Part shown: positions 11,347 through 48,102 of the stretch, piece by piece
Layout of the letters: each line of letters begins with the position of its first letter
Position numbering within the stretch: position 1 is the stretch's first letter
Assembly (NCBI RefSeq): GCF_044704955.1
Contig: NC_091999.1
Location: 40,672,001-40,736,000, forward strand
Direction: 5' to 3'
DNA: 64,000 bases
Source of the DNA: Pristiophorus japonicus
Taxonomy: Eukaryota
Notes under the pieces: generated by a model
The model's database searches: none
What the model saw: the letters and a program-made list of their open reading frames with translations, nothing else
Told to the model about the DNA's origin: nothing
Program-made: the position numbers and the translations under genes

Positions 11347-11428
11347 GTAATTGTGGCCGAGTGGTTAAAGCGATGGACTAGAAATACTTTGGGTTTTCTG
11401 CGCGTAGGTTAGAATCCTGCCGACTACG
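11347..11428 (+). pseudogene. tRNA-Ser(AGA) copy, probably a pseudogene
   Basis: GGCCGAGTGGTTAA..ATGGACTAGAAAT..; B box mutated to GGTTAGAATCC. Confidence 0.82.
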
Positions 11429-13185: not shown

Positions 13186-13268
13186 ACCAGGATGGCCGAG
13201 TGGTTAAGGTGTTGGACTTAAAATCCAATGGTTTTATAACTGTGTGGGTTCGAATCCCACTCCTGGTA
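13186..13268 (+). tRNA. tRNA-Leu(TAA) copy 5, the most intact tRNA in the array
   Basis: Perfect acceptor (ACCAGGA/TCCTGGT), anticodon (TTGGA/TCCAA) and T (GTGGG/CCCAC) stems; A and B boxes intact; internal TTTT in the variable arm. Confidence 0.9.
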
Positions 13269-14346: not shown

Positions 14347-14418
14347 CATTCATTTGTATAGTGCGTAGTATCCCGGCCTGTTATGTAGAAGACAGGGTTT
14401 CAATTCCCCAACGGACAG
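14347..14418 (+). pseudogene. tRNA-Asp-derived pseudogene
   Basis: GTATAGTG..AGTATCCC.GCCTGTTAT..TTCAATTCCCC.ACGG at the Asp position. Confidence 0.72.
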
Positions 14419-14606
14419 GAAGCTTTTTCAAAATGCAGGATTTTACTTCTGTTTCTTGGTATAGATTCATGTTAAAAAGTTCCAGTGCAATACAGAATAG
14501 TAAAAATACAGGAAGAGGAGATTTTTTTCAGAATTCTGTGTCATCTGCTGCAGAGAGGTGGATGACTGAGTTTTGTCTGAGTAACATTTAAATAAATAAC
14601 TAGTCA

Positions 14607-14688
14607 GTAGTCGTGGCCAATAGGTTACAGCGATGAGCTAGAAAATCCATCGTATTTTACCCCTGAAGGTCGAATCCTGCCGACTACG
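14607..14688 (+). pseudogene. tRNA-Ser(AGA) pseudogene
   Basis: GTAGTCGTGGCC..CTAGAAAATCCAT..TCGAATCCTGCCGACTACG with indels. Confidence 0.8.
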
Positions 14689-15442
14689 ATTCTCAGCATT
14701 TTTCATTCCATTTCACAATTTAACCAGGTCTTTGCAAAACTCAACCTGAGATTGATGGAATAACGTCCCACACCTTTCAAAACTGTCATTTTTAAAATAA
14801 TTTTAATTAAACTGTAATATTCACGATACTTACGTATAGAAAAACGCACAAATCAGCCAAAGTTGCGACAGTGATTCAGCCTGTCTATCCCTCTATATGT
14901 CGAAGACATCTGTACATGTCCGTTGGTGCGAGTATATTTTTGCCTATGTGTGTGTGTGTCTGTGTCTGTCTATCTGTATTTATATATATATCTGTGTATG
15001 TGCAACTGTCTGTATAAATCATCACCATGAATTTGGTATGTCATGGAACTTTTTAAAAAGATTTGATGAAAATAATACGGTTGTGAACTTTGGTATCGGC
15101 TTTGGTTCAGTGGCGGTATTCTCGACTGAATCAGGAGTTTGTGTGTTTAAGTCCCACTCCTGAGACTTGAGCAGATAATCTTGGCAGACACTCAAGTGCA
15201 GTACTTGGGGAATTTTGCATTGTTGAAGCTGTTGACTTTCAGAAGAAATTTTAAATTAAAGCTCCGTCTGCACCCTCGGGTTGATCACAGCATTACTCGA
15301 AAAAGAATAGGAGAGTTGCCCCCGTGTCAATATTACTAAAAATGTTCCTAAATGCTCACTGAAACCCGATGTGTATGTGTGTGTCTGTGGGGTGGAGTTG
15401 AAGCCCAGATTCTCACAGAGACAGAATCGAAACACTGGAAGG

Positions 15443-15524
15443 ACCAGGATGGCCGAGTGGTAAAGGCGTTGGCCTTAAAATTCAATGGGATTTTCCCACG
15501 AGATTTCGTACCCCACTCCTCGAA
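15443..15524 (+). pseudogene. tRNA-Leu(TAA) pseudogene, copy 6
   Basis: 5' half intact; T arm and acceptor 3' strand decayed. Confidence 0.82.
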
Positions 15525-15937
15525 TCTCTTTAATTTATCACTGATTTCCTCCCATGCTGATCAGTGATACCTGAGTTTCATCTGTTGAATCAACAATTTC
15601 TGTTACTCTGTGACACTCTGAGCCGATCATGAAATGAAATTGTGAAATGTATCTGTGTATCTCAGTCTCTGCCTTTCTGTCTTTAGAGAGCTGTGCATGT
15701 GTTTGTGTGCTTGAGTCTGAGTCTGCCTCTCTCTGACTCACTCTGTGCCTGTTTCTCTGTTTGTCTCTGTCTCTCAATCTGTCTCTTTCTCACGGTGCCA
15801 ACGTCTGTTCCAATAGGATTCTCTCAGAATCTCTGTCTGACTGTCTCTCTCTTTCCCATCATCTCTGCCCATGTCTTTGCCTGTCTCACTTTGTTCCTGT
15901 CTCTAACCTGATGAGTATTTTCATTATTTTCAGTTTT

Positions 15938-17864
15938 AGAAACATAGAAACATAGAAAATAGCTGCAGGATTAGGCCATTCGGCCCTTCGAGCCTGCGCC
16001 GCCATTCAATATGTTCATGGCTGACCATTCCTTCAGTTCCCCTTTCCTGCTTTCACTCCATACCCCTTCACCCCCTTATCCGTAAGGGCCATATCTAACT
16101 CCCTCTTGAATATATCCAATGATCTGGCATCAACAACTCTCTGCGGCAGGGAATTCCACAGGTCAACAACTCGCTGAATGAAGAAGTTTCTCCTCATCTT
16201 AGTGCTAAATGGCCTACCCCTTATCCTAAGACTATGTCCCCTGGTTCTGGATTTCCCGAAAATCGAGAACTTTCTTCCCGCATCGAACCTGTACAGTCCC
16301 GTCAGAAACTTATATTTTTCAATGAGATCCCCTCTCATCATTCTAAACGGCAGTGAATAAAGGCCCAGTTGATCCAATCTCTCCTCATATGACAGTCCTG
16401 CCATCCCTGGAATCAGTCTGTTGACAATATCGGACCGAGTCAGCATGGATTTATGAAAGGGAAATCATGCTTGATGAATCTTCTGGAATTTGTTGAGGAT
16501 GTAACGAGTAGAGTGGACAAGGGAGAATCAGTGGATGTAGTCAAGAGATTGGTGCACAAAGTCCAAGCGCATGGTATTGGGATTAATGCACTGACGTGAA
16601 TAGAGAACTGTTTGGCAACTGGTTTGCTGCACTCCCTCAATAGCAAGAACGTCCTTCCTCAGACTAGGAGACCAAAACTGAACACAATATACCAGGTCTG
16701 GCCTCACTAAGGCCTTGTACAACTGCAGTTAGGTCTCCCTGCTCCTATATTCAAATCCCCTAGCTATGAAGGCCAGCATACCATTTGCCTTCTTTACCGC
16801 CTGCTGTACCTGCAAGCCCACTCTCAGTGACTGATGAACCATGACACCCAGGTCTCGTTGCTCCTCCCCTTTTTCTAGTGTGCCGCCATTCAGATAATGT
16901 TCTGCCTTCGTGTTTTTGCCCCCAAAATGGATAACCTCACATTTATACACATTATACTGCATCTGCCATATATTTGCCCACTCACCTAATCTGTCCAAAT
17001 CACCCTGCAGCCTCTTAGCATCCTCCTCACAGCTCGCACCACCACCCAGTTTAGTGTTATCCGCAAACTTGGAGATATTACACTCTATTCCTTCAACCAA
17101 ATCGTTAATGTATATTGTAAAGAGCTGGGGTCCCAACACTGAGCCCTGCGGCACCTCACTAGTAACTGCCTGCCATTGTGAAAAGGACCTGTTTATCCCG
17201 ATTCTCTGCTTCCTGTCTGTCAACCAGTTCTCTATCCACGTCAGTACATTAATCCCAATACCATGCGCTTGGATTTTGTGCACCAATCTCTTGTGCGGGA
17301 CCTTGTCAAAAGCCTATTGAAAGTCCAAATACACCACATCCACTGGTTCTCCCTTGTCCACTCTACTTGTTACATCCTCAAAAAATTCCAGAAGATTCCT
17401 CAAGCATGATTTCCTTTTCATAAATCTATGCTGACTCGGTCCGATCCTGTCAGTGCTTTCCAAATGGGCTGCTATTTCATCCTTAATGATTGATTCCAAC
17501 ATTTTCCCCACTACTGATGCCAGGCTAACCGATCTATAATTAACCGCTTTCTCTCTCCCTCCTTTTTTAAAAAGTGCCATCACATTAGCTACCCTCCAGT
17601 CAATAGGAACTGATACAGAGTCGATAGATTGTTGGAAAATGATCACCAATGCATCCACTATTTCTAGGACCACTTCCTTAAGTACTCTGGGATGCAGACT
17701 ATCAGGACCCAGGGATTTATCGGACTTTATTCCCATCAATTTCCCTAACACAATTTCCCGCCAATAAGGATATCTTTCAGTTCCTCATTCTCACTAGACT
17801 CACAGTCCCCTCGTACATCTTCAAGGTTTTTTGTATCTTCCTTTGTAAAGACAGAACCGAATTA
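15938..17864 (-). mobile_element. 5'-truncated CR1 LINE (ORF2 RT and 3' UTR) with an internal inverted insert
   Basis: GPDSLHPRVLKE, DVVYLDFQ, VPQGSVLGP, KFADN motifs; (TTCTATGT)n tail at 15938-15957. Confidence 0.95.
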
Positions 17865-17916
17865 TTGTCTCGATCTCTCTCTATATCTGTCTTTCTCTCT
17901 ATCTGTCTCCCCCTTT

Positions 17917-20353
17917 GAACATAAGAACATAAGAACATAAGAATTAGGAACAGGAGTAGGCCATCTGGACCCTCGAGCCTGCCCCGCCATTCAATAAGAT
18001 CATGGCTGAACTGGTCGTGGATTCAGCTCCACTTACCCGCCCTCTCCCCGTAATCCTTAATTCCCTTATTGGTTAAAAATCTATCTATCTTTGACTTGAA
18101 AACATTCAATGAGCTAGCCTCAACTGCTTCCTTGGGCAGAAAATTCCACAGATTCACAACCCTCTGGGAGAAGACATTTTTTCTCAACTCGGTTTTAAAT
18201 TGACTCCTCCGCATTTTGAGGCTGTGTCCCCTAGTACTAGTCTCCCCGACCAGTGGAAACAATCTCTCTGCCTCTATCTTGTCTATCCCTTTCATGATTT
18301 TAAATGTTTCTCCAAGATCACCCCTCATCCTTCTGAACTCCAAGGAGTAAGGACCCAGTCTACTCAATCTTTCATCATAAGGTAACCCCCTCATTTCTGG
18401 AATCAGCCTAGTGAATCGTCTCTGTACCCCTTCCAAAGCTAGTATATCCTTCCTTAAGTAAGGTGACCAAAACTGCACGCAGTACTCCAGGTGCAGCCTT
18501 ACCAATACCTTATACAGTTGCAGCAAGACCTCCCTGCTTTTGTATTCCATCCCTTTCGCAATGAAGGCCAATATTCCATTTGCCTTCCTGATTACATGCT
18601 GCACCTGCAAACTAACCTTTTGGGATTCATGCACAAGGACCCCCAGGTCCCTTTGCACCACAGCATGTTGTAATTTCTCCCCATTCAAATAATATTCCCT
18701 TTTACTGTTTTTTTCCCAAGGTGGATGACCTCACTCTTTCCGACATTGTATTCCATCTGCCAAACCTTAGCCCATTCGCTTAACCTATGCAAATCTCCTT
18801 GCAGTCTCTCTGAGTTCTCTACACAACCCGCTTTCCCACTAATCTTAGTGTCATCTGCAAATTCTGTTGCACTACACTCTGTCCCCTCTTCTAGGTCATC
18901 TATGTATATTGTAAACAGTTGTGGTCTCAGCACTGATCCCTGTGGCACACCACTAACCACCGATTTCCAACCAGAAAAGGACCCATTTATCCCGACTTTC
19001 TGCTTTCTGTTCGCCAGCCAATTCTCTATCCATGCTAATACATTTCCTCTGACTCCGCGTACCTTTGTCTTCTGTAGTAACCTTTTGTGTGGCACCTTAT
19101 CCAATGCCTTTTGGAAATCTAAATACACCACATCCATCGGTACACCTCTATCCACCAAGCTCGTTATAGCCTCAAAGAATTCCAGTAAGGTAGTTAAACA
19201 TGATTTCCCTTTCATGAATCCATGCTGCGTCTGCTTGATTGCACTATTCCTATCTAGATGTCCCGCTATTTCTTCCTTATGATAGTTTCAAGCATTTTCC
19301 CCACTACAGATGTTAAACTAACCGGCCTATAGTTACCTGCCTTTTGCCTGCCCCGTTTTTTTAAACAGAGGCGTTACATTAGCTGCTCTCCAATCCGCTG
19401 GTACCTCCCCAGATTCCAGAGAATTTTGGTAGATTATAACGAATGCATCTGCTATAACTTCAGCCATCTCTTTTAACACCCTGGGATGTATTTCATCATG
19501 ACCAGGGGACTTGTCTACCTTCAGTCCCATTAGCCTGTCCAGCATTATTCCCCTAGTGATCGTGATTGTCTCAACATCCTCCCTTTCCACATTCCTGTGG
19601 CCTGCAAATTGTGACATTGTTTTTGTGTCTTCCACTGTGAAGACGGAAGCAAAATAATTGTTTAAGGTCTCAGCCATTTCCACATTTCCCATTATTAAAT
19701 CTCCCTTCTCATCATCTGAGGGACCAACATTTACCTTAGTCACTCTCTTCCGTTTTATATATCGGTAAAACTTTTACTATCTGTTTTTATATTTTGCGCC
19801 AGTTACTTTTGTAATCTATCTTTCCTTTCTTTATTGCTTTCTTAGTAATTCTTTGCTGTCATTTAAAATTTTCCCAATCTTGTAGTTTCCCACTAACCTT
19901 GGCCACCTTATACGCATTGGTTTTTAATTTGATACTCTCCTTTATTTCCTTGGTTATCCTCTGCTGGTTATCACTTCTCTTGCCGCCCCTCTTTTCACTG
20001 GAATATATTTTTTTTGCGCTCTATGAAAGAGGTCCTTAAAAGTCCTCCACTGTTCCTCAATTGTGCCACTGTTTAGTCCTTGTTTCCAGTCTACTTTAGC
20101 CAACTCTGCCCTCATCCCACTGTAGTCCCCTTTGTTTAAGCATCGTAACCTCGTTTCTGATACAACTTCCTCATCCTCAATCTGTATTACAAATTCAACC
20201 ATATTGTGATCACTCATTCCGAGGGGATCTTTTACGAGGAGATCGTTTATTTTTCCTGTATCATTACACAGGACCAGATCCTAGATGGCTTGCTCCCTTG
20301 TAGGCTCTGTTACATACTGTTCTAAGAAACAGTCCCGTATGCATTCTATGAAT
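17917..20353 (-). mobile_element. 5'-truncated CR1 LINE, second subfamily
   Basis: SDHN endonuclease end, KSPGHDEIHPRVLKE, YLDFQKA, PQGSVL, FADD motifs; (TTCTTATG)n tail at 17917-17942. Confidence 0.95.
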
Positions 20354-21077
20354 TATCTCTCTCATTGTCCCTGTCTTTGTCCCTGTCATTCCATCACTAT
20401 TTGCCCCTCTCTTTATGGAGCACACAAACACATCTCTGTATATGTATGTGTTTGAGTCTTTCTGTTATTCAGTCTGACCTTCCATCTCAGTCTCTAAGTC
20501 TCTGTTTCTCTTTGTCTCTATCTCGCTGTCTCTCTCTCCCTGTTTCCCTGTCTCTCAACTTATCTGTCTCTTTCTCACGATGTCCAGTTCTGTTCCAATG
20601 GGATTCTCTCAGTCTCTCTGTCTGACTGTCTCTCTCATTCCCATCATCTCTCTCTGTCCATGTCTCCACCTGTCTCTCTCTTTGCCTGTCTCTGTTAGTT
20701 CCTGTCTCTAACCTGCTGAGTATTTCCATCATTTTCTGTTTATATCTCTGTCTATCTCACTATCTGTCGCTCACTCTTTCTCGGTCTCTCTCTTTGTCAC
20801 TGTCTTTGTCACTGTCTTTCTCTCACTCTTTGCCTCTCTCTCTTTAAAGAGCACACACACACATCTCTGTATATGTGTGTGTTTGAGTCTTTTTCTCACT
20901 CAGTCTGCCTCTCCTTCTCAGTCTCATACTTTCTGTCTCACGTTGTCTCTATCTCGCTGTCTGTCTCTCCCTGTTTGTCGGTTTGTCTCTGTCTCTCAAT
21001 GTGCCTGTCGACTTCTCATGGTGTCCAGTTCTGTTCACAGCTCGATTCCTGCTCTAACAAAACAAATACGCGTCAGT

Positions 21078-21149
21078 TCCTCGTTCGTGTAGTAGTTAAT
21101 ATCCCTTCCTGTCACGCGTGAGGTCGGGGTTCAATTCGCTGACGAGGTT
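21078..21149 (+). pseudogene. tRNA-Asp(GTC) pseudogene
   Basis: TCCTCGTT..CCTGTCACGCG..GGGGTTCAATTC. Confidence 0.78.
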
Positions 21150-21588
21150 GGAGCTTTTTCAAAATGTTGCATATTACTTCAAAATGTCCTGGAACTTTAT
21201 AAAAAGACTTGGGGAAAGTAATACGGATATGAGCTTTGGTATCGGCTTTGTTTCAGTGGCAGCATTCTCCGCTGAATCATGAGGTTGTGTGTGTGAGTCC
21301 AACTCCTGAGACTTGAGCATATCATCTTGGCTGACACTCAAATGCAGCACTTGGGCAATTTTGCATTGTTGAAGCTGTTGACTTTCGGATGAAATGTTAA
21401 ATTGAAGCTCCGTCTGCACCCTCGGGTGGATATGAAAGGTCCCAGAGCATTACTCGAAAAAGAATAGGAGAGTTGCCCCTGTGTCAATATTACTATAAAT
21501 ATTTGAAAATGCCCATTAAAAACCTATGTCTGTGAGAGTGGATCTGCAGCCCATATTCTCACAGAGACAAAATCCGAATACTGACGAA

Positions 21589-21672
21589 ACCAGGATGGCC
21601 GAGTGGTTTAGGCGTTGGACGTAAAATCCAATGGGTGTATAGCAGCGTGGGTTCGATACCCCACTCTTGGTA
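21589..21672 (+). pseudogene. tRNA-Leu(TAA) copy 7
   Basis: ACCAGGATGGCCGAGTGG..TTGGACGTAAAATCCAA..GGGTTCGA; U33 changed to G and an extra base in the T loop. Confidence 0.82.
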
Positions 21673-21872
21673 AATCTTTAAATTGAAACCGATTTTCTCC
21701 CATCCTGCTCAGTAATGCGCGAATGTATTCTGTTGAATCTGTTCATGTCGATAACTTTATAGCATTCTCAACTGACAAAGAGATGGGGTTATGCAATGTT
21801 TCTGTGCCTCTCACTCTCTGTGTTAAGAGAGCTCTTTATGTGTTTGTGTTTGAGTCTGACTCACTCTGTCTG

Positions 21873-24189
21873 AGGAATTACGAGCTGAATTTAGGGAGCC
21901 TGGAGCTAAATTAACAAATAGGACATCAAAGGTAGCAATTTCAGGATAGCTACCACTGACACCTGCTAGTCAGAGTAGGAATCGCAGGATAGCTCAGATG
22001 AATGTGTGGTGCAGAATGGAGGGATTCAATTTCCTGGGACATTGGAACCGTTTCACGGGGAGCTGGGACCAGTGCAAACCGGACGCTCTGCACCTGGGCA
22101 GGACCAATGTCCACGGGGGAGAGTTTGCTCGTGTTGTTGGGGAGTGGTTAAACTAATATGGCAGTGGGATGGGAACCTATGCAGGGAGACAGAGGGAAGT
22201 AAAATGCGGGCTGAAAAGTAAATGTGGACGGCAGAGAAACCCAAGGCAAAAATAAAAAAGGGCCACATTGCAGCCAAATTATAAAGGGACAAGATGTGTC
22301 AAGATAACAAGCGTGAAGGCACTGTGCCTCAATGCGAGGAGTATTCGTAATAAGGTGGACAAATTAACTGCACAGGCAGCAATTAATGAATTTGATGTAA
22401 TTGGCATCACGGAGAAATGGCTCCAGGGTGACGAAGGCTGGTAACGCAACATCCAGGGATATTCACCAATCAGGGAGGATAGACAGAAAGGAAAAGGAGG
22501 TGGGGTGCCATTGCTGGTTGAAGAGGAAATTAACGCAATAGTAAGGAAGGACATTCGCGTGGATTCTGTGTGGGTGGAGCTGCGGAATATCAAAGGGAAG
22601 AAAACGCTAGTGGGAGTTGTGTATCAACAAACAATAGTAGTGAGTTTGGGGACAGCATCAAACAAGAAAGCAGGGATGTGTGCAATATAGGTACAGAAGT
22701 TATCATGGGCGACTTTAATCTATATATAGATTGTGCTAACCAAACTGGTAGCAATACGGTACAGGTGGATTTGCTGGAGTGTATTCGGGATGGTTTACTT
22801 GACCAATATGTCGAGGAACCATCTAGAGGGCTGGGCATCCTAGACTGGTTGATGTGTAATGAGAAAGGACTAATTAGCAATCTTGTTGTGCAGGTCCCCT
22901 TGGAAAAGAGTAACCATAATAAGGTAGAAATATTTGTTAATATGGAGAGTGAAACAATTAATTCTGAGACTGGGGTCCTGAACTGAAGGAAAGGTAACTT
23001 CGACGGTATGAGACATGAATTGGCTAGAATAGACTGGGAAATCATACTTAAAGGGTTGACGGCAGATAGGCAATGGAAAACATTTAAAATCACATGGATG
23101 AATTTCAACAATTGGACATCCCTGTCTGGAGTAAAAAAATAAAACGGGAAAGGTGGCTCAACCGTGGCTAACAAGGGAAATTAAGGATAGTGTTAAATCC
23201 AAGGAAGAGGCATATAAATTGGTCAGAAAAAGCATCAACCCGAGGACGGGGAGAAATTTAGAATTCAGCAGAGGAGGACAAAGGGTTTAATTCGGAGGAG
23301 GAAAATAGAGTATGAGAGGAAGCTTGCTGGGAACATAAAAACTTCTGTAGATATGTGAAGAGAAAAAGATTAGTGAAGGCAAACGTAGGTCCCTTGCAGT
23401 CAGATTCAGGTGAATTTATAATGGGGAACAAATAAATTGTAGACCAGTTGAACAAATACTTTGGCTCTGCATTCACGAAGGGAGGCATGCATAACCTTCT
23501 GGAAATAGTACGTGACCGAGGGGCTAGTGAGAAGGAGGAACTGAAGGAAATCCTTATTTGTGGGAAATTATGTTCGGAAAATTGATGGGACTAAAGGCAG
23601 CTGTACAGGGCCTTGGTGAGGCCTCACCTGGAATACTGTATTCAGTTTTGTTCTAATCTGAGGAAGGACGTTCTTTCTATTGAGGGAGTGCAGCGAAGGT
23701 TCACCAGACTGATTTCCGGGATGGCAGGACTGACATATGAGGAGAGATAGGATCGACTGGGTCTTTATTTACTGGAGTTTAGAAGAATGAGAGGGGACCT
23801 CAGAAACATAAAGTTCTGATGGGACTGGGCAAGTTAGACGCAGGAAGAACGTTCCCGATGTTGGGGAAGTCCAGAATAAGTGGTCACAGGCTAAGGACAA
23901 GGGATAAGCCATTTAGGACCGAGATGAGGAGAAACTTCTTCACTCAGAGAGTTGTTAACGTGTGGAATTCTCTTCCGCAGAACGTTGTTGATGCCAGTTC
24001 ATCAGATATATTCAAGAGGGAGTTGGATATGGCCCTTAAGGTAAAGGGATCAAGGGGTACGAAGCGAAAGCAGGAAAGGGGTACTGAGGTGAATGATCAG
24101 CCATGATCTTATTGAATGTTGGTGCAGGCTCGAAGGGGCGAATGGTCTATTCCTGCAACCTTTTTCTATGTTTCTATGTTTCTATGTTT
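21873..24189 (+). mobile_element. CR1 LINE: ORF1 esterase end, ORF2 endonuclease, large RT deletion near 23598, then 3' end
   Basis: LNARSI, IMGDFN and LDQYVEEP motifs, then an abrupt jump to LYRALVRPHLEY; (TTCTATGT)3 tail at about 24163-24189. Confidence 0.92.
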
Positions 24190-27100
24190 CAGGGTGCATG
24201 CATTTAATGGCCCAGTGTGCTGTGCCATTTCTTTCAACTGGGTGCTATTTATTGAACCTGTAACTCGCCCGGTTTGTATCTGATCCATATTGTGTCTCAC
24301 CTGACCAATCATCCATCTCCCATTGCATGACATGTGTCTCTTTTCCTGTCCTCGGCATCGTCCTCTCAATTCCTGCTTATTTTGCTCATTAATTGTTCCT
24401 GCATGGCCTTCCAATACGGATACACCCTCTAGCATTTTTTTTGGATGTTTTAGATCCTAACTCTGAAGATTCTATCCCAATCCTGGCCTGTTTCCTGATT
24501 AGTACCTCCGTTGTTCCCCTCAAGCTATCTACACGTGCCTGGATCGCCTGTCTATCTGGTGCATCTACTAGAAATGACCCTGTAAAGTTAATACGTCATT
24601 CGCTGTAAATCTCCTCTGTCTTCCTTCTTTGTGTCTCCGCTTCTTGTGTTACTCCCTTGCTCCTGATGTGTCACTAGCTATTCTCAGGATTGTGTCTAGC
24701 AATCGTATTTACACCGCTTTAGTCTTGTGGCTAATTTTTTCTGGCAGGTATAGGGCTGATTAATTTATGCTCACAGGTAACATTTCATGCTGCACATTGT
24801 CAAATAACAACATTACTTCTGTTCCAGATTTAACTACCACGCAATTTCCCAAGATTAATTCCCCTGGTTTACAATATTCAGGTAACATTTTTTACATACT
24901 TGTCTTATGGCTTCAAGGCAAACGCTCCTGACACTTAGATGCCGCCCTCGAGAGGCTGCTTTACGTACTTGTTGTACCCTCCGCTGTGGTTAAATGCTTC
25001 TGGGCCCCCGAGGGGCGGCCTTGTAGCTTGTCTTTGTAGAATCTGAAGGACGGTGATGATCACGTTTACATTCTGTTGATAAAACACATCCTGGATATTC
25101 CAGGTTTTAGTTAGAGTCTTACCATTTCCATTACAACCGGATTTTCCTTTCACTAGCCACTGTATTTGTTCTGCAATTGCTGTGGTTAGGTACAAAATTC
25201 CTGCAATAGCTAAAGAACCCCAGTACCTTACAAACCCCTCAGACTGGTTTTGGTAGGGGCATAATCCTAATGTCCTCCTTCCTGTCATTGGACATGGTCC
25301 GAGTTCCTTGGGATATTTCGTGTCCCAGGTACTGTACCACAGCTTGTCCGATTTGTGCCTTTTTGGGATTTACTTTAAATCCTGCTTTCCGTTATCTCAA
25401 ATGTTTCAGTTTCAAAGCCTTTACGTCTCACTTTCTGTGGTTCTTCAATCACTATATCTGAAGTCACAAGTTCAACTTATATTGTCCTTTGTTCTAAACT
25501 GCAAAAGCCTGCCGTTTTAACATTTACTTTTTTTCAAAATTCCTTTTACACTTTCGCAGATAGCTCCCCACTTGCCCAGGAGTTTGACCTGATCCCTGAA
25601 GGTATTTCTATATTGTTTCGAAACATGATAGTTTTACTTATTTTTTTTAAGAGATCAGATTTAACTTTTTATGTTAAATGTATTTCATTTTGTTGTGTAT
25701 TTTCTTAAACAGTGGTACTTGAAATCTTCAGAACAAAATTAACTCTTCACTGCTCCCATCCTGATTTCTGCTCCCCTTTTGTAGTATTTGTATTTATTGT
25801 TGGATTATGAAATGTTAAATATGGTAATACTGTTTTTTAATCGGACTTATCATTTATGTTTATAGTGATTCACAGATCACAGAATGCAAAGTACTTGTTT
25901 TATAATTATGTGCCTGACTTCTGTTTTAGAAGCTGAACATCAAAAACTCTAATCTTTTGCGCTGTAACTTCAATTTTGTGATACAGTATCTCATAAATTT
26001 AATCTTTTTCAGCTTCAGCTTCTGACACAGTATGTTTACTTTTATTAAAAGTCTTCCAAACCCAAGATTTTCCAATACAACCAAAATGTTTATCAAGGAG
26101 AATCACCAGAAATATCTCAAAATCCCAATTCAAATATGCCAATCTTTTATTTAAAAATCTTTTTACTGAGCTCGAAGCTTTCGCATCAAGATTTTACACA
26201 AAGAAATATGGGGCGTACTTCCCAAGCCCGCAGTCTTGCGACACCCATGCAGGATTCTTTTTTTAAGGCATTACAATTTCCCTTCTCCGTTCTTTATCTC
26301 ATTCCTAGACTAAATGTATTGTCTTTCAAACAAATGTAATCAATGATTACATGTTTTCTTTTGACAAGTGAGCGTGTCGAAAATTTTTTATTAAAACCAT
26401 CGGGACCACACATTTTTAATCTTTTGCTCAACAAACCTATCCTTTGTGCATTTCCTAGCACCATAACATATCATCTGAATAAATCCACACCTGGGTTTCT
26501 AAATTAAAATGTCATTCAATTCTAGGTTCACACTTTCTTAAAACTTCCTTCATACAGGACAACACTGCAAAGGGTTAAAACAAATTCACTCTGTCTGAAA
26601 AAGTGGGTGGGGCCATAACAACAGACAGCTCTGCCACTTTCTGAAGCAGGCTTTCAGACACCTGAAAAATTCATTAATTCCCACCTCAAATATTCCGAAG
26701 TCCAAAATCACACAAGCACTTTCATTCAAAGACAGACATTCACAAAAATCTCTCTTTATTCAACAAAGCTTATTGTTTGGCCGGCTCTATTTTTGTATCC
26801 ATACTTCACTTAAGAAAGTCACTAACAGTTTTTGTTATGGACTTCCGAAAACTATCTACTAAGCGAGCCTTCTGGCCCCCAATCAATACTTTATTTTCCT
26901 CAGGTCCTAATCATAACCCTGTTAGTGGGGGATACAAATTTGGGCCAAATTCCTCTGTCCATTCCCTTCTGTCAATTATATCTATTTTTATACTTACATC
27001 CTGTTGTCTTTTGTCACATTCTCTGTCCATCTCACCTTCGGGTATCTTTCTATTCATCTTTCCAGCTGTTAAAATGATCTTTTTCCATTCATCATATCCT

Positions 27101-27544
27101 GCCTTAACCATCTTCATGACCTTTTCAGATTTATCTCTCAGAAACTCTTCTGGTAGTTTATACCTCAGCCCTCCAAGGGCCTTGGCAGATTCATTTGCCA
27201 TTTCATACATTGGGGCTGTTTCCCCAGTTCCTGTTTTACCATCTTTATTAAGCAGAACTTTTTAAACCAAGGCTTTTTACCTTGTGTTGTTTTTCCGCTT
27301 TTACTTATGCGGGACTATTTACACTGAGGCTTTTTTCCTGTATACGTACTTATTGTACCAAAACTTACAGTATTGATTTACAGTGTCCTGACGCGCCCCT
27401 CAACTGGATTTACTGGCTGCATGGATTCTACCTCAGATTCGTTGGATCTCTCGTTACTTTGCGAGGAGAATTTCTCAAGCTAATTCTCTACTCACTCGTT
27501 ATTCGGTTGGTCAGCTTTTTGAGTCTAATCTGCCCGTCCAGTAG

Positions 27545-27562
27545 ATCCTGCTGACTGCGCCA
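27545..27562 (-). promoter_or_regulatory. Primer-binding site for tRNA-Ser
   Basis: Minus strand TGGCGCAGTCAGCAGGAT lies 3 nt after the LTR end (..TAACA) and is 16/18 complementary to the tRNA-Ser 3' end ATCCTGCCGACTACG-CCA. Confidence 0.85.
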
Positions 27563-27565
27563 CGT

Positions 27566-28055
27566 TGTTAGAGTTAACTTCAAACCACCACTCGGAGTCC
27601 GTTAGTCTTAAAGTAAATGCAGTTTTTATTAATAAAAGATAAAAGCTGGCAGGTGAGCTATCCTTGAATGAATGCTCAGAGAAACTGCCAGAGACATCTT
27701 ATTTTATACAGTTTCAGATTATAGTCTTACTTAATTACGCAAGTTACAATTAATATTAGCTGATTGATTAATACATGATTATCTGGTAGGTTGCTTCCTC
27801 CAATCTGGCCTCTATATACTTTAATTGGTAATTCAGGATACATGTTGTTATGATTCTTTTTATTTAACTTGTATCTTATTATATAATTCAAATTCTATGT
27901 TATCTGTGTCTGTGCCCAGCTCCCAAGGCCTTTGGTCTATGAATTGGAACATCTCACCCTCTGTGGAAGGCATCCCACACATGCTTCTCACAATCTGAAA
28001 AACAGGCTGTGGGATCTATTTTAAAAATCTGCTAACTCCATTTTAAAACATCACA
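27566..28055 (-). repeat. 5' LTR of ERV-A (outer boundary approximate)
   Basis: Ends TTAACTCTAACA next to the PBS; TATAAA at about 27703-27708 and AATAAA at about 27625-27630 on the minus strand. Confidence 0.7.
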
Positions 28056-28079
28056 ATTATTATTATTAATTGGAATTAA

Positions 28080-29600
28080 AATTTGTGATCTGCCCTTTCA
28101 GTCTATTATGGGGTATTTTATCGAAGGCCTTTGGAAATCTAGATAAATTACATCTACTACATTACGTTAGTTTACGCTATCTGTTACTTCTTCGAAAAAT
28201 TCAAAGAATTTGGTCAATTCAAGACTTTCCCTTTTCTTATCCATGCTGACTATTCATTTTTGGTTTCTAGTTGTTCTTCCACTTTCTCCTTTAGTAGGGA
28301 ATCCATTATTTTTCCTCCCAACGACGTTAAGTTGACGGGACTATAGTTCCTCAGTCACGTTCAACCTCACTTCTTAAAAATGGGTATTACATTAGGTATC
28401 TGCCAATCCTCTGGCACTGCACTTTATTCTAACAAAATATTAAATATGTTTATTAATGCCTCTGCTATCTCTTCCCTTGATGTAATTTGTCCGAAGCCGG
28501 CATTTTATCCATTTTCGGTTTGATTAGTTGATATAATATTTTCCTCTTGTTATTTTAAATGCAGTTATTTCATTTCTAATATCATCCAATGTCATGTCCA
28601 CCTGTGTTTACTCCCTGATAAATACTGATGCAAAGTAATTGTTTAATATTTCTTCCTATCTCTGTCTGTGGACAACCTTCTGAGCCACGTACCTTGGTAT
28701 GTATTGTGGATGTCCTCCACGCAATCTTTATCCTTATTGTTAGGCAGGAGCAGTGTCTCATTCTCAGTCTCTCCTCAGTTCTCGCTTCACGGCACCCAAT
28801 CAGCCACGGACTTTACTGAACCTGCGCTTTTCTGTGGGATGTGACTGTTTTCTGGATTAAATCACTTCTCCTGTGTGTTTCAGAGTGTGTCGAACTCGCA
28901 CTCCAGGCCAATTATTCTGAGCCAGAGAGAATAAAGCATAGACATTTCCTGCAGATGTGGGAATGTGGGACAGATTTGATGTCCACAAACTCACACACAT
29001 TACAGTCTCGACTCATTGCCTACCCTGCCACCTTTAGTTATTTTTTATAAATTATTTGCTTATTTACACACTGAATTAATTTAATTACTTAGTTTTTATT
29101 CAAATGGTTATTTATAATTATATTAATTAATTAGTAATTATAGTTAAATTATTAATTTAATAAAGTATTGTTATTGCTCCCAGGTCTTAATGTGGACCAA
29201 GCTTCGAGAAAAAAGTTAATACTCTCCAAACGTTCAGCTCCCTGCTGTATTTTGGAGGCCAAAGCAGCACCTCCTTCAACCACTGTTCCCATTCAAACTC
29301 TCACCAAATTCCATTTAATATCACTGTGCAGAACACACTGTGAATCAGCAGTTAGTGTTTAGTTTTATACCTTTGGAGCCACACACAAGTTACAAGTGCT
29401 GTCTCAGCTCCATGCCCATTGCTCGCAGTAATTAGCACATATTTAAGACTAACACTTACAGCTGACTGATAGTTAACTACCACTAACAGGCAGTTTCTGC
29501 TAACTTCTGTTTTTAAAGTTCGAAGTTCAATTCAAAACGTTAATCTAAATGTCCCTTCTTACAGCTAATACTCAGCCAGACTCACCCCGGACTTACCACT
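28080..29600 (-). mobile_element. Old, heavily deleted CR1 (5' UTR, ORF1 N-terminus, ORF2 pieces)
   Basis: ICRKC-like ORF1 knuckle near 28940-28960; YLDFQ.AFD and NYSPVNLTS pieces at 28120-28350. Confidence 0.6.
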
Positions 29601-30775
29601 GAATCTCACTTTCTCTACGTTCCCAAATTTACCACTCTCTTTGTGCACTCCGTTTAAGATCAGGATGTGGTGATAGATTAAGCTCTGACATGCTCTGCTG
29701 GGCCGAAAGAGTCGGGGTGGGGAAGGTCGCTCTGTAAATTTGCAGTCCACAGGCAGATGGGCTGCTAACACTCAGCACCCCCAGAGAAACCTCAGGGGAA
29801 CGGCCTCAGAACAGTTTGCAGCCGCGAGCACCGAATGGCCTATTTCTGTGCTGCAGACATTAAGTAACTCTTTGTAAGGTGATGGGTGAAGGAGAAGGGA
29901 TGTCTGAAATGCGATTCTGGGTCAACCACAGACCAGGGCGTGGTCAGAAGGGCAGGTCTGTGATGTCACAATACTCAGGCACAGTGTCATGGGGGTTTCA
30001 CCGCTTTATTACATCACACATACTGCAATACCTAGCAACAAAGCTCGTTACCACCCTCACTGAACACTGCATATTATGGCCTATGTTTAGCTCGGAGATT
30101 TTACAGAGAGTGAGGAGGAGCTGAGTTTAATGTGTGTCGAGTGTGTGCGGGGAACACTTCATCCTGCAGCTCACCGCATTGTTCTGGCAAACTTACAAAG
30201 GAACGTTATAGTGGTGAATGTCACTGGGATATACTCCGTCTGTTGGAGACCCTTTAATCCCAAAGGTAGATTATCCGAAACAAGGACACGTCGCTATCAC
30301 CAGGTGCTGGGGCTGCTCAGGTTAAACCCCACTGGGAGAAAAACACAAGGAGCCTGCAAAAGGATGAAAGCACTGACCTTTGAGCCTTTGAAACCTTCCC
30401 TCCCTGGCTATTGTTTGGTCCCAGGCCATTTCCCACCAGCTTTCCCTGGGAGTGCTGGGGACTGAGCGACCCGCCCGTGGACTGAAAAGTAACAGAGCCA
30501 CCTTCCCCGTGCCGCTCCCTTTGGGTAAACACATCCGACACGAGCCTGGCGGTCGGGAGCATTATAAAGCCATTCCAGACCGCAGCAGACGTCTTAGCGG
30601 GGATAAAACCTGAAGGAGGCCAACGGGACTGATCTCCGTGGACTTCCCCACCACTACCATTTTTGTTAGTCGCTGACTCCGCGCGGTGAAAGATGAAAAC
30701 AGGCCTCACTGTGTGTGTACCACAGAGATGAGCGGATTGGGCAGAACACCCGCCCAAAACATTGTGTGATTCTTA

Positions 30776-33700
30776 TTATTTAATGCATTTAACAATTACA
30801 GTAAAGGGATATTTCACCGCATTCTTCAACTCCTCTCTGAATTTCGTCTGGGTCACGGCATAAATACATGTGTTGGTGCAGCAACTCAGGAGCTGAAGCA
30901 TTGATCCCATTTCCTGTACATATTGAGGTAGAGATACACGAATAACGTTTAACGAATACAATCGTTCAACCACAGAATATAACAGAAACACTGCCCATAA
31001 CAGGATAAAATTGCCGGATAGAACAAACAGTAAAATGATGGATTTCCTTCGCTTCTCCATCTCTGGGTCACTGGGAATCTCCCCACTGCTGTGGGCCCTG
31101 AGTCTCCTGCGGGCTCTGCTCGACACTAAAACGTGTCTGACAGTTAAAGTATTGAGCAGAAGGATCAGAACAAATGGAATAAACGGTGTTATAATATAAT
31201 GAAGGAATTCAATTACTGCCCATGATACTGATTCATAGACTTCCCATCGAACAAAACAAAACCAGGGACTATTGGAAATATGATACATACCTGCATACAT
31301 AAAGTACCAGAAAGTGTTCTTTACACAGAACAGCGCACTCAATGTTCCCACAACCACAGTCGCCGTTTTCTCGGTGCAATATTTGGTTTTGAGCTTCTGA
31401 CAACAAATGGCTATACATCGATCAAAGGTAAAAGCAACTGTGAACCAGACGGAACAGTCTGTCACTGCGTAAAGCAGGATGGCATGGATATTACAAACAT
31501 TAATCTTCCACATGAACTCAAACACGGTTGAATAAAGAATAGGAATCTGCCTGGATATCAGGTCGAGGATAACGACCAGTAGATCCGCCGCTGCCATTGC
31601 CACCAGGTAACGGCTGACACACTTGGAGAGACCGCACCTTCCTCGAGACAGGATCATTATCGTCACGATGTTCACTGTAAGAAAGAGAAAAACAGGGAAT
31701 GTATACTTCAGATTGAGAGCAACAACAGCAGTCTCAAAGAATTATGTGTGAAATGTGTCAGGATTAAATGAACCAGCCAATGGGACTTGTGGTGTTTGGG
31801 CCAGGACTGATGAAATCATCGGATGGGACGTGTGCTGTTTGGGTCAGGACTGATTACACCAGCGGATGGGACGTGTGGTGTTTGGGACAGTTACTGAAAT
31901 AACCAATATATGGGACGTGTGGGTGTCGGGACAAGGACTGAATGTACTAATGGATGGGACGTGTGGGTGTTGGCTCTGGACTGAATGTACCAGTGGATGG
32001 GATGTTTGGGTGTTGTGACAGGGAGTGAGTGAAGCGGTGGATGTGATGTGTGGGTGCTGGGTCATGACTGAAATAATTAATGTGCTGGAATTTTGCCAGG
32101 TGGGTAAAGCTCCGAATGAGACTCTGATATCACGCCATATCCAAGTCAGAGGAAGCAATAATTCAGCACAAGAAGCCGCGAGTTTGTGAACAGCCTGCGT
32201 CCATTGAGGGAAATAGAATCATTGTCCAGGGATGGGAATGTAGTATGGGGACAGCGAGGGGGATGAAATCTGTGTCCAGAATGGAATTGGGGGCCAAGGG
32301 AGGGAATGGAGTCTGTGGCCAAGGAAAGGAATGGAGTCTGTGACAGGGAGGGGAATGGAGTATGTGGCCAAGGAGAGGAATCGATTCTTTGTCCAGGAAG
32401 TGGAATCGAATCTTTGTACAGGGAGGGGAATGGAGTATGTGGCCAAGGTGGGGAATGAAATCTGTGGCCAGAGAGGGGAATGGAGTCTTTGACGAGGTTA
32501 CTGCGGTTGTGTCGTAGGCTGAAGAAGATGACTTTAATTGTATTATGTGTCGAAATCAGAACCTTTCCAACCATTGTTTTGAAAGTACACTTTGTAACTG
32601 GCTTAAGCTGACTTTCCAAGAATATTGCAAATAATCTTTAAAGAAGGGACTGTCGCATTACAATAGACTGATGATGACCCATGTTGTAAGCTGTCACAGA
32701 AGATTTTCGAACGTGTCTGTTTACAGCTGGAACTGTGTCAACCAACTTCCTTTCACTTGGTGTGAGAAGGTTACAGACTTCCAGTCGACAGAGAGAGTTT
32801 GAGACTGGAAATATCAAAATATTTCACAATATAGTGCTCCATTTTGAATAGTTGCTACTGTGTGGCCCACCCCGAGCTCTCGTGAACTGTGGCTGAACAA
32901 GGGAAATAAATCAATTCAAACACAACTGAATAAACATTTTACTGGAAGACGTGTTGCAGTTTTAACCCTGTCCTGATCATCTGGATTTAGTGACTGTGAG
33001 GCAGAGCGGGAGGCGGTGGAAATTACGACAACTCTCTATAGCTGAATCATTAGTGGATAATGTCTCATATCTCAATGTATTTGTGAAGTATCTCTCAACA
33101 CTGATTTCCACAGATCAGTGTCATTAACAATATCCAGCGGTCCTTAAAACACTTATTACCGCTGAACACATATTTATTATCCAACACTGGGCATCAGTGC
33201 AGTAAGCTGACTTCAGGCTGTTCAGTAATCGAATCGTTCACTAACATATCTTGTGTCAAAATCAAATTTCTGTCAAATCCTGTAAACCACTATCACTGGA
33301 AACAAGTTGTGGAAACAACACACTGTTTATTGAACTGGGAGCAGCGAGTCAGCAAATGATCGAACATTACATGACAGAAACTTCTGTGCATTGCCAGACA
33401 CAGAACAAGAGATTTAATTTGTGAAAACAACATACTGTTCATTGAACTGGGGTCAGCGAATCAGCAAATTATCAAACATTACATGACAGAAACTTCTGTG
33501 CATTGCCAGACACAGAACAAGAGATTTAAATTGTGAAAACAACATACTATTCATTGAACTGGGGTCAGCGAATCAGCAAATTATCAAACATTACATGACA
33601 GAAACTTCCGTGCATTGCCAGACACAGAAAACAGGTTTAAATTGTGAAAACAACATAATGTTCATTGAACTGGGAGCAGCGAATTCACAAATGATCAAAC

Positions 33701-33941
33701 ATTACATGACAGACACTTATTTTCATTGCCAAACTCAGAACAAGAGGTTCAAATTGAATACAATTAATAACTAGAACTAAAGGACAAGGACAGCAAATAC
33801 AGAGAAACATGGGTTACATAATTAATTGCAGATTAAGGACTCACCAGGAACACCAACAGCAGCGAGGAGCGGGTAATAAAAACGTTCCACATTGAAAAAT
33901 GCCCTCAGGATCCAAAGCTCAGTTGGAATCTCCCAGAACAT
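30776..33941 (-). CDS. Two-exon class A orphan GPCR, GPR139/GPR142-like (chondrichthyan expanded type), 331 aa; exon 1 33845-33941, exon 2 30776-31674
   Basis: Exon 1 MFWEIPTELWILRAFFNVERFYYPLLAAVGVP ends at a GTGAGT donor (33844); phase-1 acceptor ttacAG at 31676-31675. Exon 2 has TM1 (V)N, AAADLL, FTFDRCIAICC, TM5 PF, RRKSIILL and CCTNTCIY. No stops. Confidence 0.92.
31780..32490. repeat. Two degenerate minisatellites in the GPCR intron
   Basis: Approx. 41-bp gatgggacgtgtgg..gactga units at 31780-32060; gggaatggagt.tgtg.cc units at 32210-32490. Confidence 0.75.
33315..33760. repeat. Approx. 112-bp tandem repeat x4 in the GPCR intron
   Basis: tgaactggg recurs at 33331, 33443, 33555 and 33666. 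Confidence 0.92.
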
Positions 33942-34033
33942 GATTTGACTTTCTATGAGCTCCAATGAGCGCTGTCCGTTTTAGACAACAACTTAAGTCA
34001 AACATTGCTGTACAGACTGAAGAAAAAATCCCT

Positions 34034-34040
34034 ATTTATA
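34034..34040 (-). promoter_or_regulatory. Candidate TATA box of the GPCR gene
   Basis: TATAAAT on the minus strand about 95 nt upstream of the ATG. Confidence 0.55.
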
Positions 34041-34399
34041 GCCTGAGGGAACTCTCCAGTGAGACAATTAAACTGCACACTGAAGGATATTAATCACAGT
34101 CACTGAATAAACAAGTTGTCCGAACGTTCTCTTTGCATCACTTTCAATTGCAAAATATCTTAAAAGCAACGTGGCTATCAGATCAAATAACCTAATCCAA
34201 AACCAAGCACTATTGGTAAAAGCAGAAATAGTTAATTCCACAGAATCACAGCTTGCATGTAAAGGGAGCAGCTTCATTTAGGGAGTTTCGATTATTACTG
34301 AGATGTAAAATAACTCTGTAATTTCAGAATTTCAATTCACTTCTCGGGGTAACACAAGTGAAATAAAACAAATGGAAGGATAGATGCAGGCTAAGTAAA

Positions 34400-35345
34400 G
34401 GTCAGTAACATACATGGGCACTAACAGTACAGTGCTAATTCAGGATACATGGGCACTGATAAAACAATGGTCAGTAAAGATATACGACGACTGATCACAC
34501 AATGACCAGTAAGGATACATGGGGACTGATAATACAGTGGTCAGTGAGCGTACATGAGGACTGATAATACAATGGTCAGTAAGGGTACATGGGGACTGAT
34601 AATACAGTGGTCAGTAAGGGTACATGAGGACTGATAATACAATAGTCAGTAAGGGTACATGGTGACTGTTAATATAATGGCGAGTAAGGATACATGGGGA
34701 CTGATAATACAGTGGTCAGTAAAGGTACATGGGGACTGATAATACAATTGTCAGTAAGGGTACATGAGGACTGATAATACAGTGGTCAGTAAAGGTACAT
34801 GAGGACTGATAATACAATTGTCAGTAAGGGTACATGAGGACTGATAATACAGTGGTCAGTAAAGGTACATGAGGACTGATAATACAATTGTCAGTAAGGG
34901 TACATGGGGACTGATAATACAATGGTCAGTAAGGTACATGAGGACTGATAATACAATGGTCAGTAAGGGTACATGGTGACTGTTAATATAATGGTGAGTA
35001 AGGATACATGGGACTGATAATACAGTGGTCACTAAGTTTACATGCAGAGGGATAATACAGTGGCCAATAAGGATACATGGGGACAGATAATACAATGGTA
35101 AGTAAGGGTACATTGGAAGGATAATAAAATGGTCAGTAAGGGTACATGGTGACTGTTAATATAATGGTGAGTAAGGATACATGCGGACAGATAATACAGA
35201 GGTCAGTAAGGATATATGGGGACAGATAATACAGTGGTCAGTAAGGGGACATGGGGCAGATAATATATTGGTCAGTAAGGGTTCATGGGGACAGATAATA
35301 CAATGGTCAGTAAGGATACATGTGTGCTGTTAATACAATGAACAG
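34400..35345. repeat. 35-bp minisatellite (about 26 copies)
   Basis: Unit ggtcagtaagggtacatggggactgataatacaRt; period 35 (34574 to 34609). Confidence 0.93.
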
Positions 35346-35417
35346 TTAGGATTCATGGCGACCGATGCCATACTGATAGTTACACGGCATCTTATCGTTT
35401 ATTTTCCTCAGAACAGG

Positions 35418-37433
35418 AATGGAGAGAGTGGAGGTGAAGAAAGGAGATGAAAGGAGCAGAGAGGTGAGGAGGGGAGAAGAGAGAGGACAGGAGGCGGGAG
35501 GGGAGTAGACGAGAGGAGATGAGTGTAGAGGAGAGGAGAGAAGGGGAATAGGAGAGAAGAGGTGAGGGGAGAAGATGAGTGGAGTGGAGAAGACAGCAGA
35601 GCAGAGTAGAGGATAGGAGGTGAGAGGAGAGGTGGGAAGAGGAAAGAGAGAAGATGAGCAGGAAGGGGAGGAGGGTTTAGTGGAGGAGAGGATAGAGGAG
35701 AGGGGAAGTAGAGAGGATAGCAGAGCAGAGATGAGTAGAAGAATGGAGAGGAGAGTTGATAAGAGGACTGGAGCGGACAAGAGAGGAGAAAAGAGGGCAG
35801 AGGAGAAGATAGCAGAGGGGAAGAGAGGAGATGAGGGGAATGGAGATGAGAGTGTAGGGGAAATGGTAGGAGAGGAGAGTGGAATAGAGGTGGGGAGAAG
35901 GTAGGGGAGAGAAGAGAGATGAGAGGGGAGAGGAGGAGAGGAGCGGAACGCAGAAGGGAGGAATGGAGAGAAGTGGAGAGGGGAGAGAGGATGCAAGGGA
36001 AGGAGAGTAGAGCAGAGTAGAGGGGAAGGGTGGCGGTAGAGCAGAGGAGAGACCATCAGAGGGGAAGAGAGGAGGGGCAAGAAGAGATGAGAAGGGAGGG
36101 GAGAAGAGAGGGGAAGTGGGGAGGAGAATGGAGGGAAGAAGAGCTGTGGAGAGTAGAGCAATGGAGAGCAGATGAGAGGAGAGGAGAGAAAAGAAGAAAG
36201 CAGAGTGGAGAGAGGAGGGTAGTAGATTAGAGGAGAGGAGAGTAGAAAAGAGGGCAGGAGAGGAAAGAAGAGTGGGTAGTATAGAGGTGAGTAGAGGTGA
36301 ATGGAAAAGAGGGGTGGTGAAGTTAGGGGAGAGAAGAGGAGAGAGAAGACAGTGAATGAGAGGAGGAGGTGAAAAGAGGGTAGAGGAAAGGAGAGCAGAC
36401 GGGAGGAGAGGGTAGGAGGGCGAGGAGAGGAGTGGAGAAGAGAGGAGTGGAGAGGGTACAGGAGAGCAGAAGGAACGAGAAGAGCGGGAAGGAGAAGAGA
36501 GGGGAGAACATCAGAGGACACAAGTTGAGGAGATGAGTTAAAATGAAAGGGGAGAAGAGGTGAGAAGGAGGGGAGAGGAGAAGAGGGGAGAATTTAGGGG
36601 AGCGGAGTAGAGATGATTGGAGTGGAGAGGAGAGTGGAGATAGAAGCGACTTGAAAACAGGGGAGAGGAGAGGATAGGGGAGGAGGGGAGATGATTGGAG
36701 ATGATAGAGCAGAGGAGAGGAGATGAGAGGAGAATGGAGGAGAGGAAAGGGGAGGAGAAGAGGGTCGGGGTGAGGGGAGAATGGAATGGAGGCGTGGAGA
36801 AGTTAGGCGAGAGGGGAGAAAATGAGGACACAAGAGAGTTGAGGAGAACAGCTGAAAGGGGAGGAGAGTTGTGGAGAGGTTCGGGAGATGGGAGAGGAGA
36901 GAGGAGAGAACGGGAAAACAGGTGAAGAGAGAAGTGGAGAGGAGAGAGGAGGAGATGGGAGAAGGGATGAGCCGAGTGGAGAGGATAGAGGACGAGATGG
37001 GAGAGGAGGAGAGAAGATGAAAGGAAAAGGAGTTGAGCAGAGGAGAGAGGAGATGAGAGGAGTGTGGAGGAGAGGGGAGGCGAGAGGAGGAGAGTTGTGG
37101 AGACGGGAGGAAAAGAGAGATGAGCGGAGAGAGGAGGGTAGAGATGAGCAGGGAGGGGACGAGAGTGTAGGGGAGGAGAGGTGAGAAGAAAGCAGAGCAG
37201 GGGAGAGTAGAGGAAAGGAGAGTAGATGTGATGAGAGGCGAGGAGAGGAAATTGGAGTGAAGAGGGGAAGGGATTAGAGGAGAGGACTGGGGAGAGGAGA
37301 GGAGAGAGTAGGGGCGAGGGTAGGAGAGGAGAATAGAGTAGAGGAGGGGAGAAGGCAGGGGAGAGGAGAGGACACGAGCACAAGAGAGATGTGAGGAGAG
37401 AGGAGAGGAGAGGGGAGGGGTGAGGAGGGGAGG
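35418..37433. repeat. Approx. 2-kb polypurine tract, degenerate (GGAGA)n
   Basis: Almost exclusively A/G on the plus strand. Confidence 0.93.
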
Positions 37434-38030
37434 TGTTGGGGTTAAAAGGAGGCTTCTCTCCTTTAAGGTGGACTAACTGATGTAGTTAAACGACACCTCG
37501 CCCAGCTTCCCACTGTATAACGTCCAAAGAAGTAAACAAACGAAACCTCAGGTTTATTGGTTTTATTCCGAGCAATGCACGGGAAGGTTCAATTTGGAAC
37601 CTCTGAAATAGAAGGGTTTTCAAGCATAATTTATACAGGTGTTGGAGAGGAGCTTTCCTCCTACAAAATCATCGATAGTTCTATTGCTATTAGCGAAGTT
37701 ACATTGATTTGTTGACTCTTATCAGACGGGCTCTGAGTGGTACATGAAACTGCCCATCTCTCATCTTTGTTTTGTTCCATTTTGCCCTCTACCCCAGTCT
37801 ATCCGATGCCTGGTATGGTAGTCCTGGTTTCTTTATCTCTTCTCAGGGACTTATAAAGAAAACTGCTGACTTTGGCTGCTTAAGTCTTACTAAGGTTAAG
37901 CTATAATATACTGCGTATAAGCGTGTTATACCTTTATAAGCAAGTGTTACATACATAGGCAATTGATAAGTTCACAACCTTCAGCATAATTCTGACCCCC
38001 TATCTACAACCTTACTATTTATCCTTTACA
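37434..38030 (-). repeat. 3' LTR of ERV-B
   Basis: Minus strand runs TGTAAAGG..TTAACCCCAACA and is preceded by the polypurine tract TAGGGGGAAT (38031-38040); TATAAA at 37630-37635, AATAAA at 37553-37558 and 37562-37567. Confidence 0.85.
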
Positions 38031-38269
38031 ATTCCCCCTAATGGCCCAAGATAGCCAATGTCGCAATTAATTCCACATGGGTGAGCTTCCAGTGGTGTCC
38101 TTTCACTTGGGTAGTGCTGCTTCCCGAGCTCCTGGACCTATCTGTTGGTTTTCCCATCAAGGTTATACTATGTAAGTCCTTTCTGCCGGACTGTCTGATT
38201 TCCCTTTCTTCAATGTTTTATCCATAGTACGGACTAGGGCCTGCTTCTTACGTCGAATCCAGCTTTTTA

Positions 38270-40219: not shown

Positions 40220-40249
40220 CTGCAAAAAAGCAATCTTTTCCGGTTGTCA

Positions 40250-43330: not shown

Positions 43331-43446
43331 TATGGGTCAGGGGCAAATCTAAGTTGGTTATTGGGTGTTCTCGGGTTGGGGCAGTGGTGGCAGTGGTACC
43401 AGTGGTGCTGGTACCTGTCTGAGCATATCCATCTGATCTTCCCTGG

Positions 43447-48100: not shown

Positions 48101-48102
<2 letters not shown>

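Follow-up and report, generated by a model that had tools for sequence, protein, structure and literature searches.

Defective endogenous retroviruses (ERVs) with a swapped central segment are known from recKoRV, ETn/MusD and the bovine D-type ERVK forms, as presented in the cited parts of PMC10924933. The element described here, ERV-A, resembles recKoRV/KoRV, ETn/MusD and the D-type of cattle ERVK[2-1-LTR] in that foreign DNA replaces the centre, with the gag start and the env side kept, and it would also share with them spread without coding capacity and recombination with competent copies. In those systems, according to the same parts of PMC10924933, a given defective form has a single helper clade as its partner; in ERV-A and its relatives, by contrast, one cassette occurs in three families and one core lies under four LTR types. 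On this comparison, ERV-A would fit among the defective forms of the recKoRV kind, the features that set it apart being a cassette and a core common to several families. Cassette sharing across ERV families was not found in the literature searched. As regards the host, SnRV-like ERVs of sharks are already known, including lineage I of the elephant-shark CmiERVs (PMC4422223, PMC4977317), which is comparable in its RT motifs in common with SnRV and in its cartilaginous-fish host (PMC4422223); the cited sections of these two accounts describe neither an env fold nor non-autonomous forms.

The window, a 64,000-nt stretch of Pristiophorus japonicus DNA, carries ERV-A as a genuine element on its minus strand. 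The 5' LTR (27566..28100, 535 nt, TG...CA) has TATAAA at 393 and AATAAA at 471; its boundary at 28100 was set from dispersed copies, which corrects the edge at 28055 given in the initial annotation. It is the sole LTR left, no second ERV-A LTR being found within the window. The primer-binding site (27544..27562, minus strand) is complementary to the 3' end of tRNA-Ser, with 2 mismatches to the window's tRNA-Ser(AGA) over its first 18 nt. A 116-codon open frame from the 5' part of gag (26911..27261, minus strand) aligns with the beginning of a relative that has kept gag and runs on into capsid and protease; the frame itself had no Pfam and no Atlas match. With this part surviving at 27261-26911, the earlier description of ERV-A as lacking gag, most of RT, RNase H and IN needs amendment for gag.

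A second gag-start scrap (26773..26890, minus strand), which shares 73% identity with the start of gag in an undeleted relative (contig C8), lies at the 5' edge of an AT-rich non-coding cassette of about 1.5 kb (25410..26880, minus strand, 34% GC), which replaces most of gag, protease and RT and contains a 43-nt RT scrap at 25579-25537. The RT thumb scrap that follows (25146..25391, minus strand) is broken by a stop and a frameshift; its DNA is 87% identical to the undeleted relative, and its amino acid identity to family C, introduced below, is 62%. At the thumb|env deletion junction (25143..25146, minus strand), 0.8-1.0 kb covering the tether and the C-terminus of integrase is gone, with the dispersed copies as reference. 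The 5' half of env (24190..25143, minus strand), with stops and frameshifts, includes the furin site and the first heptad region, and is cut short by a CR1 LINE (22000..24189, plus strand, 5' limit approximate) whose 3' microsatellite tail abuts it; the 3' half of env and the 3' LTR were lost at this tail, at about 24187. At the cassette|RT junction (25410-25370) there is a 22-nt direct repeat with units 67 nt apart, one unit of which is gone in the window and in 5/29 array copies.

ERV-A lies in a segmentally amplified block (1..63755) that contains tRNA genes, CR1s, ERV-A, a 7TM gene and ERV-B; the block spans at least 64 kb, and ERV-B travels with ERV-A. The whole window forms one unit of an extensive amplification at about 14-64 Mb of contig C23, with copies 87-99% identical. 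At a second site, six adjacent stretches match window positions 1-63755 at 98-99%, and two further sites match long parts of the block. Queries with window DNA returned 778 and 1837 candidates, the best 40 of each scoring 92-100% and lying nearly all on C23, and 20/20 fetched matches extend into host DNA on both sides. A U5-primer pattern gave 175 matches (control, 0), and the 100 listed divide into 89 from C23, 7 from other large contigs and 4 from small ones. Identity to the window copy ranges over 88.5-99.7% in the 29 array copies fetched, all 29 of which have in common the host flanks, the host|LTR junction and the env|CR1 junction. Most close ERV-A copies are segmental duplicates, not transpositions. 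Counting copies with shared junctions would therefore mislead, since the top-scoring copies are segmental duplicates including host flanks, and counts based on window-DNA queries were discarded. ERV-A serves as a caution that an array produced by segmental amplification can look like a non-autonomous family. An exact-pattern search for solo or 3' LTRs, a weak test, gave 0 matches. The flanks and CR1 junction common to 29/29 close copies, and the 89 of 100 listed primer matches on C23, speak for a single provirus that decayed in place, with all copies made by segmental duplication and no non-autonomous family at all.

Outside the array, a different picture emerged. The seven off-array U5-primer matches comprised four family-A elements with other flanks and three more distant relatives. 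With DNA absent from the array as query, the best 40 matches were scored (0 on C23) and 20 were fetched, which together with the four family-A elements make a dispersed set of 24 loci, or 22 after merging two duplicate pairs. The cassette|RT junction near 25400 is present in 20/24 dispersed loci. The RNase H/integrase deletion, seen as the tether|integrase junction, is present in 24/24, a count inflated because 20 of the loci were picked by a query spanning that junction; among the unselected loci it is present in 4/4. An upstream RT query, blind to this junction, recovered the same deletion in 16/20 loci (3/20 not covering it, 1/20 undeleted), along with a nested series of RT breakpoints. Uninterrupted dispersed elements measure 7.1-7.2 kb and have 5-bp target duplications, which were perfect at 6/11 loci scripted (5 independent), the other 5/11 failing the automated test. 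The dispersed copies keep their cis signals, namely two LTRs, primer site and purine tract; the window copy has lost the 3' end. As these deletions are shared by loci with other flanks and 5-bp duplications, we conclude that a non-autonomous family exists.

Decay in place is refuted for the family and holds for the C23 copies only, as evident from the array flanks being found in 0/24 dispersed loci, the separate 5-bp duplications and the presence of both LTRs; as an account of all copies it is extremely improbable. The array-specific host|LTR, thumb|env and env|CR1 junctions were each seen in 0/24 dispersed loci. The suggestion that ERV-A represents a non-autonomous derivative was thus borne out in part by the genome-wide search for shared junctions that had been proposed with it: the junction near 25400 (20/24) and the RNase H/IN deletion are family traits, and the junction near 25145 (0/24) is private to the amplified locus, as is the CR1 truncation of env. 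LTR pairs of dispersed copies are 89-97% identical, and a divergence of 3-6% would correspond to about 7-14 million years at a mammalian rate, an age that is poorly fixed because the rate assumed in the cited part of PMC4422223 gives ages ten times greater. Some dispersed loci are segmental duplicates themselves (L112=L115, L113=L123 and a cluster on contig C9).

To copy itself, a retrovirus needs capsid, protease, the RT active site, RNase H and the integrase core. The dispersed elements lack all of these and therefore cannot copy themselves, which points to spread by complementation in trans. The explanation we hold with good confidence is that ERV-A belongs, as a more decayed copy, to a defective 7-kb family that is dispersed and lacks most of gag and pol, and that this family likely spread through packaging and copying by helpers and likely swapped its cassette, LTRs and env. 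Intact helper retroviruses would have packaged and copied the defective family-A genomes, and template switching with other families likely accounts for the exchange of these three parts, co-packaging being the presumable route; the window copy later underwent its private deletion, the CR1 truncation and segmental amplification. Counting against this explanation, no helper for family A was found among the relatives examined, the undeleted one being itself decayed, with another LTR and mostly another env; family C has members with open frames.

Such exchange would be reflected in the mosaic structure of family A, the defective core of which is 90-94% identical whichever of four unrelated LTR types or two env types accompanies it. 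Over the 24 loci, the LTR is of type A in 13, of the L113 type in 5, C-like in 2 and of the L120 type in 2, with none seen in 2. The pol scraps of the core are 84-96% identical to the undeleted but decayed provirus on C8, which has no cassette and carries that other LTR and, mostly, that other env; for the LTR and the start of gag in family A, the resemblance is to another relative, one that has kept gag. A shared shifted RT spacing (229 nt) was found in 8/22 measurable loci; the two mosaics whose LTR and env are C-like are among these, so that the core had probably been broken before its exchange.

ERV-B (37434..45668, minus strand, 3' LTR at 38030-37434) is a decayed provirus representing another dispersed family, and no 5' LTR of it was found in the window; the LTR is missing at 45668-47600, the point at which dispersed B copies have it. 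Comparison of the two elements upheld most of what the initial annotation had listed, namely the cleavage motifs RQRR in ERV-A (24621-24610) and RGKR in ERV-B, the agreement of the LTR U5 tips at 10/12 nt, and TATAAA preceding AATAAA, by 78 nt in A and 68/77 nt in B. The LTRs differ as stated there, being unalignable beyond the U5 tip and this spacing. Homology of the RT thumbs was likewise confirmed (44% of 57 aa, E 2e-8), the A thumb reaching 46-55% over 65-71 aa in its nine best matches among dispersed B copies. The 20-residue env match quoted earlier is insignificant by itself (E about 1); env homology nevertheless holds, as two overlapping B-family env profiles match 24441-24226 with 18.2 and 14.7 bits, far above the maxima of 4.5 and 4.7 bits from 200 codon shuffles. 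Two profiles of other B-family env parts had no match in ERV-A.

The presence of two distinct, related families in the window is therefore supported. As to the radiation of the clade that had been read from it, it is shown by the dispersed families A, B and C and by env relatives; adjacency of A and B is weak evidence because it is one event copied many times. Env relatives occur in four shark genera: the ERV-A env piece had 6 matches, five of them named from Mustelus, Heterodontus, Pristiophorus and Chiloscyllium, and all 8 matches of a related env come likewise from these genera, in keeping with a shark as host. Querying with a shark env homologue revealed family C, with 102 scored dispersed matches. 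Among the 12 loci fetched (the L081-L092 sample), 4 retain gag, another 2 are without gag yet have most of pol, and the remaining 6 consist of env only. The primer site of family C is for tRNA-Ser, its two LTRs are identical in several loci, and some members have open gag, pol and env frames. Env frames of 737 codons or more account for 17/102; 25, 21 and 12 of the 102 have lengths of 570, 559 and 642 codons, and this recurrence of shared lengths suggests that env was often already broken when the copies multiplied. The env proteins of the three families are 23-45% identical.

The DNA replacing gag in 8/8 gag-less family-C loci is homologous to the ERV-A cassette, with 64-94% identity in blocks and E values down to 1e-118. 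The cassette is thus present in 8/12 family-C loci and absent from both gag-intact C loci tested. The gag of ERV-B contains a 920-nt non-coding insert (44438..45357, minus strand) that shares homology with the family-C cassette over the latter's 3' half, this 3' part aligning with the B insert and adjoining B gag at 68-81%; no direct alignment was obtained between the A cassette and the B insert. The insert was present over at least 800 nt in 12/21 dispersed B loci, some of the others not covering the site. Substitutions between cassettes of different families showed no codon periodicity (p 0.21-0.85), like the LTR control and unlike three coding controls (p<0.0005), and an Rfam search of window positions 24000-28300 gave 0 matches. 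A search of sequencing runs listed no RNA data set with a match. The C version of the cassette yielded 4730 candidates, the best 40 of which score 93-100% and lie on many contigs. In the open-access papers and preprint texts searched, neither the cassette nor the shark families that carry it were found described.

What the cassette does is weighed differently by two readings. One, compatible with the core of the helper-spread explanation and differing on cassette function only, takes the family as non-autonomous and the cassette as an inert passenger of one old recombination, spread by recombination and drift. The lack of a frame, Rfam match or codon signal fits this, as do the varying length and blocks of the cassette and its partial deletion in several loci; its recurrence in 8/12 family-C and, as the insert, 12/21 family-B loci, the 4730 candidates for the C version and the persistence of blocks of 85-94% identity between families count against it, and we give it just under an even chance. 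That the cassette instead confers an export, stability or packaging advantage on the RNA is possible, at odds somewhat below even, and is the weakest part of the helper-spread explanation. A bolder version, in which a satellite-like non-coding RNA module would parasitise a whole clade of F-type-env shark retroviruses, replacing gag with a packaging or export advantage and jumping between successive families over millions of years, the latest with identical LTRs, is rather unlikely. In a further reading, an autonomous virus outside the sample would have the cassette as its native leader, and A, B and C derivatives would each have recombined with that virus. Parental sampling is thin (best 40 matches per search), and locus L095 has cassette-like DNA plus RNase H; however, the cassette lies inside or replaces gag in every case examined and is absent from gag-intact relatives, making this origin quite improbable. 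If the cassette acts in cis, it would offer a natural, repeated test of defective high-affinity elements overrunning and extinguishing ERV families, an idea taken from the cited part of PMC10924933; such a test would span families, with the young family C caught mid-takeover at 8/12 sampled loci.

The pol of families B and C has a tether plus RNase H, which is a trait of all retroviruses. RT plus tether, ranked against PDB sequences, scored 185 bits for MLV, 114 for foamy virus and 97 for Ty3; the integrase gave a weak MLVIN_C match. A homologue search with the broken RT gave no match, a longer RT gave 3 matches, none informative by name, and the Atlas search matched the RT family only. Compared by eye with the alignments shown in the supplement of PMC7947760, the B and C RTs have many SnRV motifs and none of the lokiretroviral ones. 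This motif comparison, with ERV-A linked through its thumb, places the three families as probably SnRV-like. Lokiretroviruses, in the cited parts of PMC7947760, do resemble them in gag-pol-env organisation, tether plus RNase H, an RXKR site and a probably F-like env, and the RXKR-type cleavage site, the tether plus RNase H and a weak PF00523 match would favour taking ERV-A and ERV-B as lokiretroviruses that carry that clade into sharks. The RT motifs differ, however, the shark RT scores closer to MLV than to foamy virus or Ty3, and the one chondrichthyan row shown of the table in PMC7947760 gives 0 hits. Lokiretrovirus identity was rejected on the RT motifs and is very unlikely.

The env of family C consists, after the furin site, of about 409 residues with 10 cysteines, no CX6CC and heptads at both ends. 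A post-furin subunit of this length fits the class Ib layout by size, not the usual orthoretroviral TM. Pfam and PDB sequence searches gave no significant match to F, the best being PF00523 with E 0.034 for 1/7 env pieces. Two AlphaFold2 models of env were unusable (pLDDT 35 and 33); with one of them, Foldseek placed F0 proteins at ranks 2, 4, 22 and 35 of 50 at insignificant E values of 0.03-0.77, and with the other no match was named F0. Class Ib fusogens, as defined in the cited part of PMC11468914, include paramyxovirus F and foamy virus Env; the family-C subunit is like them in size, heptads and missing CX6CC, and no significant sequence or structure match to them was obtained. Thus, the F-env label of the initial annotation is suggested by anatomy and unsupported by sequence searches, and we regard an F-like env as probable. 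The natural open env frames make the use of an F-type fusogen by SnRV-like retroviruses testable, and such use would bear on the origin of retroviral env.

Several further features of the amplified block were observed. A single-exon rhodopsin-family 7TM frame (30776-31741, minus strand; PF00001, E 2e-16) was multiplied with the block and is open in two other block copies. The annotated Mustelus protein P0005 appears to be an env joined to a 7TM-like tail resembling this frame; it is perhaps a gene-model fusion, hinting that env and 7TM frames lie close together in another shark as well. At 4624-21672, roughly 3-kb repeats carry nine tRNA genes, of which five are tRNA-Leu(TAA), and a C2H2 zinc-finger array at 49755-50129 (minus strand) is found in other block copies too. 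Contig C9 has, at about 207-223 Mb, a further group of almost identical defective proviruses (L134-L148, L113 and L123), which is probably another segmental amplification.
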